From a virus (Duplodnaviria > Heunggongvirae > Uroviricota > Caudoviricetes), in the IMG/VR virus record IMGVR_UViG_2713896798_000017: a stretch of DNA of 46,614 nt; one strand, written 5' to 3'. Below are positions 9,001 through 15,000 of this stretch, piece by piece. Position 1 is the stretch's first letter, and the number at the start of each line of letters is the position of its first letter. Made by a program: the position numbers.

Positions 9001-12000
9001 CTGGATGTGAGGCGGAATAATAGCCGAAATTCGGTAAGGGGCTTCGAAGGGGCTTTTAAGGGGCTTCGAAGCCAAGAACAGGAACAGGAGCAGGAGAAAG
9101 AACAGGAACAGGACAAAAACACTATGGTTCATGGCAAAAAAAACACCACGAACCAGGCAGGGGATGTTCAGACCGTCAATCCTGGTCAGCCAGCAGGCAC
9201 GACACCGGAAGCCGATTCAGCGTATGCGCTGAAAGCCGATTCGGGCGCTGTGCAGCAGGTGATGACCGCAGGGTCGGAGCAATCACACCAACTGCAGCAG
9301 CCTGAAGCCGATTCCGCCATTCAGCGGGAAGCCGATCGGGTAGTCCCGGAAAGCACCGGGCAGTCTGTGGGACGAGTGGATTATCCGGATGTGTTCGAAC
9401 AGGTCTGGCGGGAATACCCGTTGCGTGCTGGGGCAAACCCGAAGAAATCCGCTTTCAGTGCCTGGAAGGCCAGATTGCGCGAGGGGGTGCCACCAGAGAC
9501 CATGCTGGATGGTGTGAGGCGTTACGCGAGATACCTGGCGGCGACCGGGAAAGCGGGAACGGAATTTGTTCAGCGAGCGACGACGTTTTTTGGGCCGGAC
9601 CGGAATTTTGAAAACCCCTGGTTGCTCCCGGTAAGCGGCACGAACAACCAGCGTTGTGTGAATCATATTTCTGAACCGGATACCGAAATTCCGCCGGGAT
9701 TCAGGGGGTGATGTGGCATGAAAAACATTGCGGCAGCCGGGGTTCTTGAACGTATTCGCAGACTTGCACCACAGGCGTCGGTTCCACCGTACCGGACGGT
9801 GGAGGAGTGGCGGGAATGGCAACTTGCTGAAGGACGAAAACGCAGCGAGGAGATTAACCGCCAGAATCACCAGTTGCGGGTGGAAAAAATCCTGAATCGT
9901 TCGGGCATCCAGCCTCTGCACAGCAAATGCTCGTTTGCGAATTATCAGGTGCAGAACGACGGGCAAAAATACGCGCTGAGCCAGGCCAAATCCATAGCTG
10001 ACGAACTGATGACCGGGTGCACGAATTTTGTGTTCAGCGGTAAAACCGGCACCGGGAAAAATCACCTTGCAGCGGCGATGGGTAACCGGCTGATGGCGAA
10101 GGGGCGCAGCGTGATTATCGTCACCGTGTCTGATGTCATGAGCGTGTTGCATGACAGCTACGACAACGGCAAATCCGGGGAAAAATTTTTACAGGAGCTT
10201 TGCAGTGTTGATTTGCTGGTCCTGGATGAAATAGGCGTTCAGCGGGAGACGAAAAACGAGCAGGTGGTATTACACCAGATAATTGATCGCCGGACAGCAT
10301 CACTGTGCAGTGTCGGGATGTTAACAAACCTGAATCATGCCGCAATGAGTACACTTCTTGGTGAGAGGATTATGGACCGCATGACCATGAACGGTGGTCG
10401 ATGAGTGACGTTTAACTGGGATAGCTGGCGTCCAAATGTCAGCAATATGAGGGTTGTGAAGTAATTTTGTCCGGAGGAAATTTTAATGGAAACCGTATCT
10501 GACGCACTGAAAGCACTGAAAAAAGCCTCTTCACATGTGGTGGCAGCTCGCCTTGGAATCAGTCGTGAAGAGGCTGTCAACGAGCTGTGGGAACTCAAAA
10601 TAAATGGCGTCGTTGATAAAACTGGTCACACCTGGTTTCTGGCTGGCGAAGGTGAATCCCGGGTAACCGAAGAGCGGCCAGTAAAATCTGAAGCACAGGA
10701 TATGCTGACCGGGGAGGTCGAACAAAAAGTTACCGCAGACATGATGATTGAGTTTATCGGTCAGGATGGGGCTAAAACGTGTGAGGAACTGGCGGGTAAG
10801 TTCGGTGTCAGTACTCGCAAGGTTGCTTCCACGCTGGCGGTGGTAACCGCAACGGGGCGGCTGGCACGCGTTAATCAGAACGGTGGATTTCGTTACTGCA
10901 TGCCGGGCGATAATTTACCAGCAGAGCCGAAAGCCGCGCTGGTAACGGAAAGTGATGGTAAGGCCTTTCCTCAGCCAGCAGGTGCTGCGTTACCAGTCCG
11001 GGAAGCCGCAACACAGGAAGAAATTAAAACAGAAACTGTGGCGGACATTGTGCAGCCGTTGCCATCGTTTACCGAAACGCAAGCAGATGAGCTGATTTTT
11101 CCGTCCCTTCGCAGGGCAAACCTGGCGCTGCGCAGGGCGAAAAGTGATGTTCAGAAGTGGGAGCGAGTCTGCGCCGCGCTGCGGGAGCTGAACAAGCACC
11201 GGGATATTGTTCGACAGATTACTGATTCTTCCCGCCGTGTTGTATCGGAAAAGTGATTGCCGGAGGCGCTTATGGCAAAAGTATTTACACAGGAAGAGCG
11301 GGAAAAAATTAAAGGGCAGGTTGTTGAGCTAGTACGCCGGAGTGGGCGCGAGACGTTACGGCAACTGGAAGCCAAGACAGGTGCGACAAGATATCTGATG
11401 AGCGTTCTTGCCAGAGAGCTGGTTGCCAGTGGCGATGTATACAACTCTGGTTACGGGTTATTCCCATCTGAACAGGCTCGTAAGGACTGGCAAAACGCCC
11501 GCAAAAAACTATCGAGGGCAAAACTGAAGAAACCGGTTGTGGTTGATCCTGACCTTATCTGGTCATTACCAGACGGAGAAATACGCCGCTATGACAGGCA
11601 ATTGAACATAATTTGTAGTGAGTGCCGTAACAGTGAAGTGATGCAGCGAGTTTTGATATTTTACACAGGAGTAATGATGGAATAGTGAAAATAACATGAA
11701 ACCTTTGGATTCTGGTGTTTCAGTGGATGGGAAAAGAGCAGATACATAGAAAATGAATAGCAATAATTCACAGTCTGGATGTTGTTTGTATGCTTATAAA
11801 ATGATCCTAGTATGCATTGCCGGAGTTGAATCAGCTCCAATGAAGAAACTGAGAGGAGTATTTAGAAGATAGCTAAATGGATGTAATTATTAGTATCTAA
11901 AAAATAGTATTTTTGAAATGGGTCTAAGAACACAACAATGTACAAATGAGAAGTTATCTTTTAATATGTTCAAAGACCCATTAGGATTGATATCAGTTAT

Positions 12001-15000
12001 GTTAGCTAGATTGATAAAGTGATTACATATTTTCTGTTATATGCTGAAATGAATAATGCTATTCCAGAGTGCAGCAGAGAAAGTCTCCTGATGATTGAGC
12101 TCTGGAAATTGTACAATAGAAAAATTACTGTATTTTTCTGTCAAAATATTTCTCAAAACAGATTCCGCTTTGATGGCTTCAGGATATAAAGATGCGGAGT
12201 AATCAAGGCTAAGATTTCCGTTAAGCAAGCATATACTTTTAGTGTGCTTTGATTCTGATATATCATCTTTAATTATCTTGATGATTCTTTCATTCTGCCA
12301 TAGAAGTGATGGTGCAGATATATAATAATAGTTAAAGCATGAATTATTTTTTAAGCAATCAAGCACAAAAATAGCACCTAGCGAGTGCCCCCATATACCG
12401 ATTCTGGAACTGTTCGGAGCAATAGTACTAACCCATGGCATGATCTGAGTTAGTAATAATTCTCGGAAAGACTGGCTTCCTCCACCAGTAAAGTAGATCC
12501 ATGCTGGTTTAGAGTTATCAACAATAGCATTTTCACCATCAGGAGTATAATCGTAAGCACGGCGATGAATGCTAAGGTTATTCCAAGATTCATAACCAAG
12601 TGTAACTAACACTGGTGGATTGGGTAGTGCATCAATAACAGGCAGAATATCAGAAATGTAATTGTTGGCACTATTCCCATCAAGTATATAAAGAGTTGCA
12701 TTATTTTTTTTAATGTTTTTTGGAGTAAAAATACATATTTTATATTTGGTGTCATGGTTAATTGAGTTAAATATGCGTGTTTGACAATGAATGTCCATAT
12801 GTTTAGTCATGCGTTCTCCCCATGAGCATTAAAGGATGCTTAAGATATGCTATGTCACTGATAAAAAATTTGTTGTGTGTGTTTAGTTATTTTATCTACC
12901 TCCATTATGATTTAAGACTGATATATGTTATCAGCAAAGGTACATCGTTATTATTTTACCTGTCAATACATTTGATATTGATTATCGTTTACATCGCTTG
13001 CTTAGGAAATTGAAGGCAGGTAACTATCATGTCAATGAACTAACCCACAGTCTAACGTACTTCTTTCCCCAATCACCAACAACCAAATTCCTGTTATCAC
13101 CACTGGGATTTTGGCGCAACTTCATGGTGCAGAGGTAAATAGCATCAAGCAAAATCTCTTTTTCCGTTGTTGTCCTTATGGGACGTCTGTCTTTCTGACC
13201 GATTTCATATTGGCGAGGTAATGGGAAGTTAAGTAGAATAGCTGCGGGTGCTTGAGGCTATCTGCCTCGGGCATGAACACCAACGGCAGATAGAGAAAAG
13301 CCCCAGTTAACATTACGCGTCCTGCAAGACGCTTAACATTAATCTGAGGCTCAATCTATGAACGGCAAATCTAGGTTAGCCTCTTACGTGCCGAAAGGCA
13401 AGGAGAAGCAGGCTATGAAGCAGCAAAAGGCGATGTTAATCGCCCTGATCGTCATCTGTTTAACCGTCATAGTGACGGCACTGGTAACGAGGAAAGACCT
13501 CTGCGAGGTACGAGTCCGAACCGGCCAGACGGAGGTCGCTGTCTTCACAGCTTACGAACCTGAGGAGTAAGAGACCTGGCGGGGGAGAAATCCCTCGCCA
13601 CCTCTGATGAATCAGGCATCCTCAACGCACCCGCACTTAACCCGCTTCGGCGGGTTTTGTTTTTTCCTGGCATTCTGGTTTACAATTCGCACGCCAGCCT
13701 GAACAACTGGCACCTGCTGCGCCAGCAGAGACAACCGATGGCGCACGATACCAAATTATACAATTCTGATGATTCTGCCGTCTTTGCCAGCAGGCGCGGA
13801 CGGTGTTTTCACGCATTCAAATCTGACTGGTACCAGCATCCCCCATGCACTGAAGAACAGGCCGAATGGCTCATTCAGTGTTACCGCAGGCGCGGATGCG
13901 AGGTTAAAAAAGCCCTTAGCCTCGACTACCGTCACTGGATAATCTCCGTCAGGCTCCCTTACTCCGAACGGCCACCGCGTCCGTCCCGCACATTCCAGCA
14001 ACGGATCTGGAGGTAATGTGCGGGTATTACTTCGACCTGTTCTGGTACCGGAACTCGGTCTGGTTATCGTTAAGCCAGGCCGTGAATCCATGCGGGTATT
14101 TCATGGCGGCAGGGTGCTGGTGGAGTCTGAACCGAAAAGCATGCGTAATCTGCCGTCCGGGGTCGTTCCTGCCGTTCGCCAGCCGCTGGCGGAAGATAAA
14201 TCATTACTGCCATTTTTCAGCAATGAGCGTGTGATTCGTGCTGCTGGTGGCGCTGGTGCACTGTCTGACTGGTTATTACGTCACGTTAAATCCTGCCAGT
14301 GGCCTCATGGTGATTATCATCACAGCGAAACTGTCATACATCGTTACGGTACCGGCGCGATGGTGTTGTGCTGGCACTGCGACAACCAGCTGCGCGACCA
14401 GACATCCGAATCACTTGAGCAACTTGCTCAACAAAACCTGTCAGCATGGATGATTGACGTCATCCGCCACGCAATGAATGGCATACAGGAACGGGAATTA
14501 TCGCTGGCTGAATTATCCTGGTGGGCAGTCTGCAATCAGGTGGTGGACGCATTACCTGAGGCAGTATCGCGTCGTTCTCTGGGATTACCGGCGGAAAAAA
14601 TCCGCTCCGTATACCGTGAAAGCGACATCATACCGGGAGAACAGACCGCCACCAGCATACTGAAGCAGCGCACAAAAAATATTGCGCTACCGCCTCACAC
14701 CCACCAGCAACAGAACCCACCACAGGAAAAGACGGTGGTCAGCATTGCCGTTGATCCGGAGTCTCCGGAATCCTTCATGAAACGACCTAAACGTCGCCGC
14801 TGGGTAAATGAGAAATACACACGCTGGGTAAAGACACAGCCGTGTGCGTGTTGTGGTAAGCCAGCGGACGATCCTCATCATCTGATTGGTCATGGTCAGG
14901 GTGGAATGGGAACAAAATCCCACGATATTTTCACGCTACCGCTGTGTCGGGAGCATCACAACGAGCTTCATGCGGATCCGCTGGCGTTCGAAGAAAAGCA

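Follow-up and report, generated by a model that had tools for sequence, protein, structure and literature searches.

A divergent, leaderless and probable siderophore-esterase homologue encoded in a variable cargo slot of an Sp4-like lambdoid prophage

Introduction

What is the function of a lone, AT-rich alpha/beta-hydrolase gene lodged between the replication genes and the hok/sok locus of a lambdoid prophage? The question is raised by a 46,614-nt stretch of DNA from a tailed phage (Caudoviricetes; IMG/VR record IMGVR_UViG_2713896798_000017), the whole of which is here called the window. Over its first 17.35 kb it shares 99.9% identity with a prophage of Escherichia coli O103:H2 12009 and 99.4% with Sp4, a prophage of E. 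coli O157:H7 Sakai, and the window is an Sp4-like lambdoid prophage. An original prediction, made from the sequence alone, singled out an AT-rich island at 11690-13350 with a gene for a 257-residue, presumably cytoplasmic, esterase-like protein. It regarded the island as a horizontally acquired moron whose function could not be assigned, and offered it as a candidate for an accessory role in defence, anti-defence or metabolism. The gene is ECs1077 of Sakai, where it is annotated as a 'hypothetical protein'; its RefSeq entry is WP_000160654.1 ('alpha/beta hydrolase'), and the PHROG family 8493 (phrog_8493, 'unknown function') matches the protein over its full length (E = 7e-185). We show below that sequence, fold and catalytic residues place this protein, with high confidence, in the IroE/PfeE/BesA family of siderophore esterases, and we consider what such a protein might do in the cytoplasm of a lysogen.

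Results and discussion

Sequence and fold point to the siderophore esterases

A phmmer search of the PDB with the island-encoded protein recovered IroE as the best match (2gzr, E = 5e-26, query residues 8-253), followed by BES (2qm0, 9e-13), PfeE (1.5e-11) and EstA (1.5e-8), with fungal siderophore esterases included among these further matches. A BLASTP comparison with Salmonella IroE gave 30% identity (E = 3e-30); this reference was drawn from a locus with iroC-, iroD- and iroN-type genes, in which iroE lies between iroD and iroN. Searches against NCBIfam and PADLOC (PADLOC-DB v2, E <= 1) returned no match to the protein. To compare folds we used an AlphaFold2 model built from an alignment of 65 family sequences, which reached a predicted local distance difference test (pLDDT) score of 90.7 and a predicted template modelling (TM) score of 0.91; the model computed from the single sequence was unusable (pLDDT 47). 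With the former, the first 30 ranks of a Foldseek search of the PDB are taken solely by siderophore esterases and IroE-like hydrolases, namely IroE, PfeE, EstA/EstB, BES and the IroE-like hydrolase 3gff, at TM scores of 0.72-0.81. IroE is again the best of these (E = 9.5e-19, TM 0.79-0.81); behind them, esterase D, ferulic-acid esterase and Fes follow at about 1e-9. In the model the protein adopts a lid-less alpha/beta-hydrolase fold that can be superposed on IroE and PfeE. A search of the BFVD library of viral structures found nothing comparable, the best hits being generic hydrolases with TM scores of at most 0.57.

Other identities were considered and rejected. Esterase D, ferulic-acid esterase and prolyl-oligopeptidase fall at least eight orders of magnitude behind the siderophore esterases in the fold search, and Pfam shows no more than a 42-residue match at the nucleophile elbow; an orthologue of Fes was excluded because the lid domain is absent (TM normalised to Fes, 0.44-0.47).

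The alignment with IroE further allowed the catalytic apparatus to be traced residue by residue. The GHSLG nucleophile elbow occupies residues 141-145, with Ser143 as the nucleophile, and Asp90, Arg130, Ser189 and His287 of IroE, in a protein whose aligned motifs read LDGN, RAYDYTP, GHSYG and LGHG, correspond to D44, R84, S143 and H240. Ser189 and His287 form the catalytic dyad of IroE (PMC10515146). D44, R84, G110 and G141 do not vary among the 65 family members, at least 90% of which also have H142, S143 and H240. Larsen et al. are said to have described in 2006 that Arg130 of IroE makes the oxyanion site and that Asp90 anchors this arginine. Of 79 family-consensus positions 45 are kept and 34 differ; the differences include GHSYGG becoming GHSLGA and the HG that contains the catalytic histidine becoming HQ.

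Taken together, the protein is very probably a member of the IroE/PfeE/BesA siderophore-esterase family. The view that its function could not be assigned hence no longer holds at the level of the family; the substrate and role proposed below are inferred from it. The original prediction had also pointed to esterase D or Fes-like families as the place to look: the siderophore-esterase side of that suggestion was borne out, yet the protein is IroE-like rather than Fes-like or esterase-D-like. There is no clear match to a characterised housekeeping esterase, identity to the characterised IroE being only about 30%.

The protein has lost the leader of its exported relatives

Relatives of the protein carry a median of 41 extra N-terminal residues, comprising a hydrophobic leader and a conserved PLGPNIADKGS segment. 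In the alignment the window protein has no counterpart to the initial ~47 residues of IroE-type proteins and begins at the first beta-strand of the catalytic domain. Its N-terminus is not hydrophobic: among the first 50 15-residue windows the highest Kyte-Doolittle mean is 0.75. Since an in-frame TAA lies seven codons 5' of the ATG, the open reading frame (ORF) cannot be longer; the start position is identical in three alleles of the gene. When the sequence before the start codon was searched for a decayed leader, both with tblastn, using N-termini of relatives as queries, and in all three frames of translation, only noise appeared. These observations uphold the earlier reading of a protein with no signal peptide, which is predicted to be cytoplasmic. 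The window protein derives from the proteobacterial exported clade and has lost the leader/anchor. IroE is periplasmic and Fes cytoplasmic (PMC7403778; PMC8001512), and PfeE is likewise periplasmic (PMC8001512). As the leader of the periplasmic relatives is absent, such a derivative should act in the cytoplasm, like BesA. BesA of Bacillus works in that compartment.

The gene sits alone in an AT-rich island within a variable slot

The GC profile of the window falls from ~0.53 to 0.30-0.36 over ~11600-13200. Between 11690 and 13165 (1476 nt) the GC content is 0.341 against a window mean of 0.511 (standard deviation 0.060); only 0.3% of segments of equal size have a lower value, every one of them overlapping the island, and the most AT-rich kilobase of the window lies inside it. 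The esterase gene, which starts with ATG and has a GC content of 0.28 at third codon positions (GC3), is the sole ORF of more than ~65 codons within the island (Table 1). Thus, the original prediction was right about the markedly low GC content and about the single 257-residue, GHSLG-containing product encoded on the strand opposite to its neighbours. The left edge of the foreign segment is at 11648-11670, in the extreme 3' end of the DUF977 gene; the right border of 13350 in the original prediction does not stand, since 13246-13420 is the hok/sok RNA region, and the resumption of homology to other hok-bearing phages puts the right edge at ~13168-13190. In a prophage carrying the epoxyqueuosine reductase QueH homology stops at 11670 and restarts at 13191, and in phage Tritos it stops at 11648 and restarts at 13168. 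The alignment to the allele termed C (locus L004) runs from directly past the DUF977 stop codon to ~13047. A search for direct or inverted repeats flanking the island, as a transposon- or integron-like mark, found only short matches at chance level.

The ~140 nt between the island core and hok (13048-13190) are present in alleles A and B. Loci with allele C have ~250 nt of unrelated sequence instead, and no similarity to this segment was detected in loci L024-L027. A truncated pseudogene for a 'hypothetical protein' (13072-13155, plus strand) is annotated within the segment by the NCBI Prokaryotic Genome Annotation Pipeline (PGAP).

Comparison with related phages indicates that the slot is occupied by different cargo in different lineages. 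Many E. coli prophages with flanks 93-97% identical to those of the window have QueH in the slot (L008, 2173-2838, plus strand). Phage Tritos, with flanks 89-95% identical, has in it a reverse-strand gene for a 444-residue FRG-domain protein (L002, 2107-3441, minus strand); in PADLOC this protein, TRITO_38, is recognised as a component of the candidate defence system PDC-S15 (E = 1e-98). The slot thus appears to serve lambdoid phages as a general hotspot for accessory or defence genes; as the QueH cargo is metabolic, it is not specific to defence. The island itself is probably a lysogenic-conversion moron, given its fixed backbone position, its replacement in related phages and its deviant GC content. 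The idea of horizontal acquisition is thereby strengthened: the gene is accessory, slot-variable and on the opposite strand, and it comes with a GC3 of 0.28 and with a Shine-Dalgarno sequence, a terminator-like hairpin and promoter-like sites of its own. The proposed candidacy for defence or anti-defence fares less well, the protein having no PADLOC match and the sole hint being the PDC-S15 candidate gene as alternative cargo.

Table 1. Positions of the esterase gene, its predicted expression signals, the island and its flanks in the window
Feature	Position	Strand	Remarks
Leaderless IroE-family serine esterase gene (ECs1077 / WP_000160654.1)	12037..12810	-	257 aa; catalytic D44, R84, S143, H240
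Variable cargo slot	11671..13190		Bounded by the DUF977 gene end and hok/sok; contains the low-GC island
Island core	11690..13047		Common to all three alleles; moves as a single unit
Shine-Dalgarno sequence, GGAG	12816..12819	-	5 nt 5' of the ATG; kept in all allele groups
Promoter-like site, ATAACA, 16-nt spacer, CATAAT	12904..12931	-	Predicted by consensus scan; kept in alleles A, B and C
Perfect TTGACA, candidate alternative -35	12961..12966	-	In all alleles; putative role; its -10 is weak (TACCTT, 18-nt spacing)
Fur-box-like 19-mer, GATATTGATTATCGTTTAC	12974..12992		Candidate; 15/19 against GATAATGATAATCATTATC; just upstream of TTGACA
Candidate terminator, long hairpin and U-rich tract	11917..11982	-	Inverted repeat I4; 55 nt past the stop codon
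DUF1627 gene	10486..11256	+	Flank to the left of the DUF977 gene
DUF977 gene, left flank	11257..11685	+	Pfam DUF977, E = 4e-27; final gene in the replication-module block
hok/sok type I toxin-antitoxin locus, right flank	13246..13660	+	sok/hok leader RNA, mok/hok ORF, terminator

The gene is accessory, conserved in sequence and without close relatives outside E. coli

We found the gene in 471 of 5426 complete E. coli genomes, with 458 of the copies at least 99% identical and the remaining 13 at 90-95%. The carriers include many O157:H7, O26, O103 and O145 strains as well as pig and fish isolates. With other cargo in the slot of related prophages, this patchy presence agrees with the prediction of an accessory gene rather than a conserved core component. 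Where present, the gene keeps its place: the island adjoins the DUF977 gene in all 19 viral-contig loci, the esterase gene lies between DUF977 and hok in these 19 IMG/VR contigs and in the divergent pig-strain locus L004, and the placement is kept across three backbone types, even with different replication genes and a DUF977 gene that is 74-79% identical. The copies form three allele groups, the window type and two others that are 93% and 91% identical to it at the nucleotide level. All three have an intact 257-codon ORF with the four catalytic residues; their pairwise synonymous divergence (dS) is 0.13-0.32, and the ratio of nonsynonymous to synonymous divergence (dN/dS) of 0.16-0.24 indicates that the gene has been under purifying selection.

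The relatives beyond these alleles are distant. In an exhaustive HMMER search of 1.84 billion representatives at 50% identity, anything more than 33% identical was a piece of the E. coli cluster itself. When 5.8 billion clusters were searched with a word index, only E. coli proteins at 83-100% identity and then a single match at 31% were returned, and among 185,579 species, with one genome each, there was no close relative. In a profile-based scan of species the best distant relatives, at 30-36% identity, come from Mixta, Pantoea and Acinetobacter and stand slightly above the enterobacterial IroE group; proteins outside E. coli are at most 36% identical to the window protein. In a phage collection tblastn detected only distant IroE genes (~29% identity), and megablast matched the hok part and not the island. 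One of the distant relatives, P0020 (31% identity; L009, 8001-8990), lies in a catecholate siderophore cluster with entE/entB/entA-like genes, two TonB-dependent receptors and a FecCD/ABC importer.

The relatives from Mixta (L030, 5848-6756) and Acinetobacter (L034, 5854-6768), with 31-33% identity, are exported stand-alone esterases whose neighbours are AzlC, an M60 peptidase and MutY-like and MgsA-like genes. Given these unrelated neighbours, the exported clade may not be uniformly dedicated to siderophores. In strain 2015C-3163 and other strains (L111, 2172-3246), the island and hokD are separated by an IS481-family element.

Predicted expression signals

The esterase gene is antisense to the early rightward operon, and a set of candidate signals suggests that it might be expressed independently of it (Table 1). 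The upstream 250 nt are conserved at 87-99% among the alleles, and the -35 element of the promoter-like site falls within a conserved palindrome, CTGATAACATATATCAG. When the 355 nt upstream were shuffled 2000 times, only 6 shuffles reached the score of the Fur-box-like site. Downstream of the gene, the RNA of the candidate terminator is predicted to fold at -23.6 kcal/mol (z = -3.3), with none of 200 shuffles as stable, and its arms are partly conserved in allele C.

The strongest Fur-box-like site of the window lies elsewhere, at 25993-26011 (GATAATTATTATCATTTTC, 17 of 19 positions). It is located between genes, in AT-rich sequence upstream of the ORF for the terminase small subunit and ~460 nt downstream of the gene for a PerC-family (PchA-like) regulator (25216-25530).

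Comparison with characterised esterases and with other morons

IroE (iroBCDEN cluster; PDB 2gzr/2gzs), the best match of the window protein in both sequence and fold (TM ~0.8), shares with it a lid-less single domain, the Ser-His dyad, the arginine oxyanion residue and the aspartate anchor. However, IroE is periplasmic and has a leader/anchor of ~45 residues together with the PLGPNIADKGS segment, both missing from the window protein, and it has GHSYGG and HG where the latter has GHSLGA and HQ. The window gene is, moreover, prophage-borne, has 34% GC and lies outside any iro cluster, with phage replication/DUF977 genes and hok in place of iroB, iroC, iroD or iroN as neighbours. The closest working model is BesA/BES of Bacillus (2qm0; Foldseek E = 1e-17, TM 0.75-0.78), a leaderless cytoplasmic member of the same family that frees iron from an imported trilactone siderophore; it is encoded on Firmicutes chromosomes and is further from the window protein in sequence than IroE. 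The BesA gene belongs to an iron-uptake regulon. PfeE of Pseudomonas aeruginosa shares family and fold (phmmer E = 1.5e-11; Foldseek E ~3e-18, TM 0.78). Its gene adjoins the receptor gene pfeA and is induced by PfeS/PfeR, whereas the window gene is not accompanied by transport or regulatory genes. PfeE and Cee of Campylobacter are stand-alone periplasmic ferric-enterobactin esterases that serve to exploit enterobactin (PMC8001512). The functional analogue in E. coli would be Fes, of the same compartment and superfamily (Foldseek E ~3e-9; PMC8001512); in contrast to the lid-less window protein of 257 residues, Fes has an N-terminal lid of ~150 residues and a Ser-His-Glu triad (PMC10515146). As a genetic element, the island resembles other lambdoid morons in the region from the replication genes to Q (the 'nin' region), among them hok/sok and, in the slot itself, QueH and the candidate defence gene of PDC-S15: it is a discrete insert between conserved backbone genes, with deviant GC content and variable occupancy. 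It differs from them in that its cargo is a siderophore-esterase homologue.

A possible role in cytoplasmic siderophore cleavage

On these grounds we consider it moderately probable that the protein is a cytoplasmic serine esterase cleaving a catecholate trilactone siderophore, for which host enterobactin, apo or ferric, would be the likeliest candidate. The prophage would then probably give its host an extra cytoplasmic enzyme that cuts catecholate siderophores. The O157:H7, O26, O103 and O145 lineages are commonly regarded as having no homologue of IroE. In the lysogen the moron gene would be transcribed from its own promoter, possibly under Fur/iron control, and read-through during lytic growth would oppose expression of the antisense esterase gene. 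The product, having lost the leader/anchor of its periplasmic relatives, would stay in the cytoplasm. There it could supplement Fes and speed the release of iron from imported ferric enterobactin, in the manner of BesA and Fes; alternatively, it could act like IroE and linearise apo-enterobactin to the trimer of dihydroxybenzoylserine (DHBS), (DHBS)3, and the shorter (DHBS)2 and DHBS. Linear products of this kind are used as alternative siderophores and act in Salmonella as antioxidants: the linear enterobactin trimer generated by IroE and Fes protects Salmonella against peroxide, and E. coli, in the K-12 context, has no IroE homologue (PMC7403778).

Several observations weigh against this proposal. 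The match of the protein to the Pfam Esterase family (PF00756), of which the IroE-like esterases form a subgroup, scores 17 bits against a gathering score of 22 (E = 0.005), and identity to characterised esterases is just 20-30%. As 64 of the 65 aligned proteins, both close alleles included, match PF00756 at E <= 1e-3, we attribute the sub-threshold score simply to strong divergence of the window allele. Close to the active site Y144L, G146A and G241Q lie beside the catalytic Ser143 and His240, with W170L and R107F elsewhere in the chain, and all five substitutions are the same in all three alleles; departing as they do from the consensus, they suggest that the pocket may now be tuned to a different ester. 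Of the chromosomal relatives examined, the two nearest, from Mixta and Acinetobacter, lie outside siderophore clusters. It is unclear what would be gained from a second esterase in E. coli, which already has the cytoplasmic Fes. On the side of expression, sites like those found in the promoter scan are no commoner than in shuffled sequence, and the Fur-box-like site falls to 13/19 in allele C. An IS1203 element splits the gene in O26:H11 11368 (L110, 838-2923) and a 1-nt deletion causes a frameshift in one IMG/VR viral contig (L028), and the gene is dispensable in some lineages. Finally, neither ECs1077 nor WP_000160654 is mentioned in the literature we searched, and publications on IroE and prophages or on phage-encoded siderophore esterases contained nothing about ECs1077.

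The altered pocket bears most directly on the alternative that fold and chemistry have been retained and the substrate retuned to a non-siderophore ester or lactone, for instance a signalling molecule, an antibiotic-like compound or some metabolite of the host or the phage, in the service of phage-phage or phage-host conflict. We regard this as an unlikely but credible reading. Besides the fixation of the five substitutions across alleles, it would account for the long isolated branch of the protein, with its gap between 36% and 83% identity in searches of 1.84 billion representatives and 185,579 species, for the lack of siderophore genes around the Mixta and Acinetobacter relatives and for the conflict-type cargo that the slot holds in Tritos. 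However, no PADLOC model matched the protein, the alternative cargo QueH is metabolic, all the structurally close solved proteins are siderophore esterases, and the unusual arginine oxyanion residue and aspartate anchor typical of IroE have been kept.

A role in exclusion of other phages could, in principle, also be played by a single gene of this kind, either through cleavage of enterobactin or a related ester in the lysogen or through an activity retuned to an ester involved in phage-host conflict. A reset of the iron/Fur state or a flood of linear catecholates might shut down the TonB-dependent receptors on which rival phages and colicins rely, or competing phages might be starved of iron. 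The gene would then be a siderophore-based exclusion or defence function located in a lambdoid hotspot for defence. The Vibrio cholerae phage ICP1 is repressed by enterobactin and linear enterobactin via iron sequestration (reviewed in PMC12360287), and a siderophore-based role in phage competition is for this reason conceivable; both the role and the route to it nevertheless strike us as doubtful.

That the gene is a neutral or decaying passenger, a functionless fragment of an exported esterase captured without its leader, seems to us improbable. The IS1203 insertion, the frameshift in L028 and other truncated or frameshifted forms such as P0017 would fit such decay, and the near-identity (>=99%) of 458 of the 471 copies might reflect recent spread rather than selection; yet the dN/dS values over three alleles, at the dS range given above, and the conservation of ORF length, start codon, Shine-Dalgarno sequence, the four catalytic residues and the upstream region speak for a functional gene. 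Least probable of all is action outside the cytoplasm, in which a protein without a Sec/Tat leader would be released by prophage lysis or non-classical export (e.g. type III) to degrade environmental or host-cell siderophores: the gene is common in O157:H7, O26, O103 and O145 strains, has the low GC content of prophage-borne effector genes (many AT-rich prophage morons of E. coli positive for the locus of enterocyte effacement, LEE, being type III substrates), lies in O103:H2 12009 in the same prophage that has espK just past its integrase end, and has close family relatives that are all periplasmic, but it is in the early/nin region rather than in the effector 'exchangeable loci' past the tail genes, occurs also in isolates from pigs and fish and in others, whose genomes are ~4.9-5.0 Mb long, and encodes no secretion signal recognised with the tools used, and we know of no alpha/beta-hydrolase effector described in the O157 repertoire.

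If the protein is indeed a cytoplasmic enterobactin-cleaving esterase, ~9% of the complete E. coli genomes searched would carry a prophage-supplied second enterobactin-processing enzyme, one overlooked since the annotation of the Sakai genome. A lambdoid prophage would thereby be tied to iron release, linear DHBS oligomers, protection from oxidative stress and, possibly, receptor regulation, and the protein would be the first phage-borne member of the IroE-like family in the libraries searched. We see in it a phage-borne and highly divergent addition to a known enzyme family, widespread among enterohaemorrhagic E. coli, and not a new kind of system; as a leaderless cytoplasmic derivative of a periplasmic clade, it bears on how localisation evolves after gene capture. 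The natural knock-outs created by IS1203 and by the 1-nt deletion offer useful isogenic-like material.

Other features of the prophage

Within the hok/sok locus that borders the slot, the sok/hok regulatory RNA region (13246-13420) was identified with the Rfam sok model (107 bits), the mok/hok ORF (13358-13570, plus strand) with Pfam HOK_GEF (E = 1.5e-22) and the terminator (13639-13656) with a terminator scan. A weak isrK-like Rfam match at 13579-13660 (27 bits against a gathering score of 50; E = 0.01) overlaps the 3' end of hok and its terminator and is probably merely the 3' structure of the hok mRNA.

A second AT-rich island, at 15500-17000 with a GC content of ~0.35-0.39, lies directly downstream of the Q-antiterminator gene. 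Its ORF at 15958-16782 (plus strand; ECs1085 in Sakai) encodes an Rce1-like/CPBP intramembrane protease (PF02517, E = 1.4e-19), for which PADLOC gave no match. A 1.33-kb element at 17352-18681 is found neither in Sp4 of Sakai nor in the O103:H2 12009 prophage; two overlapping ORFs, the first with an HTH_Tnp_1 domain and the second with an rve integrase core, assign it to the IS3 family, and it does not match the IS629 copy of the Sakai locus. In the immunity region, annotation of the identical O103:H2 12009 sequence identifies a RelE/ParE-RelB type II toxin-antitoxin pair (6158-6636, minus strand). Together with hok/sok, this pair provides the prophage with at least two addiction modules.

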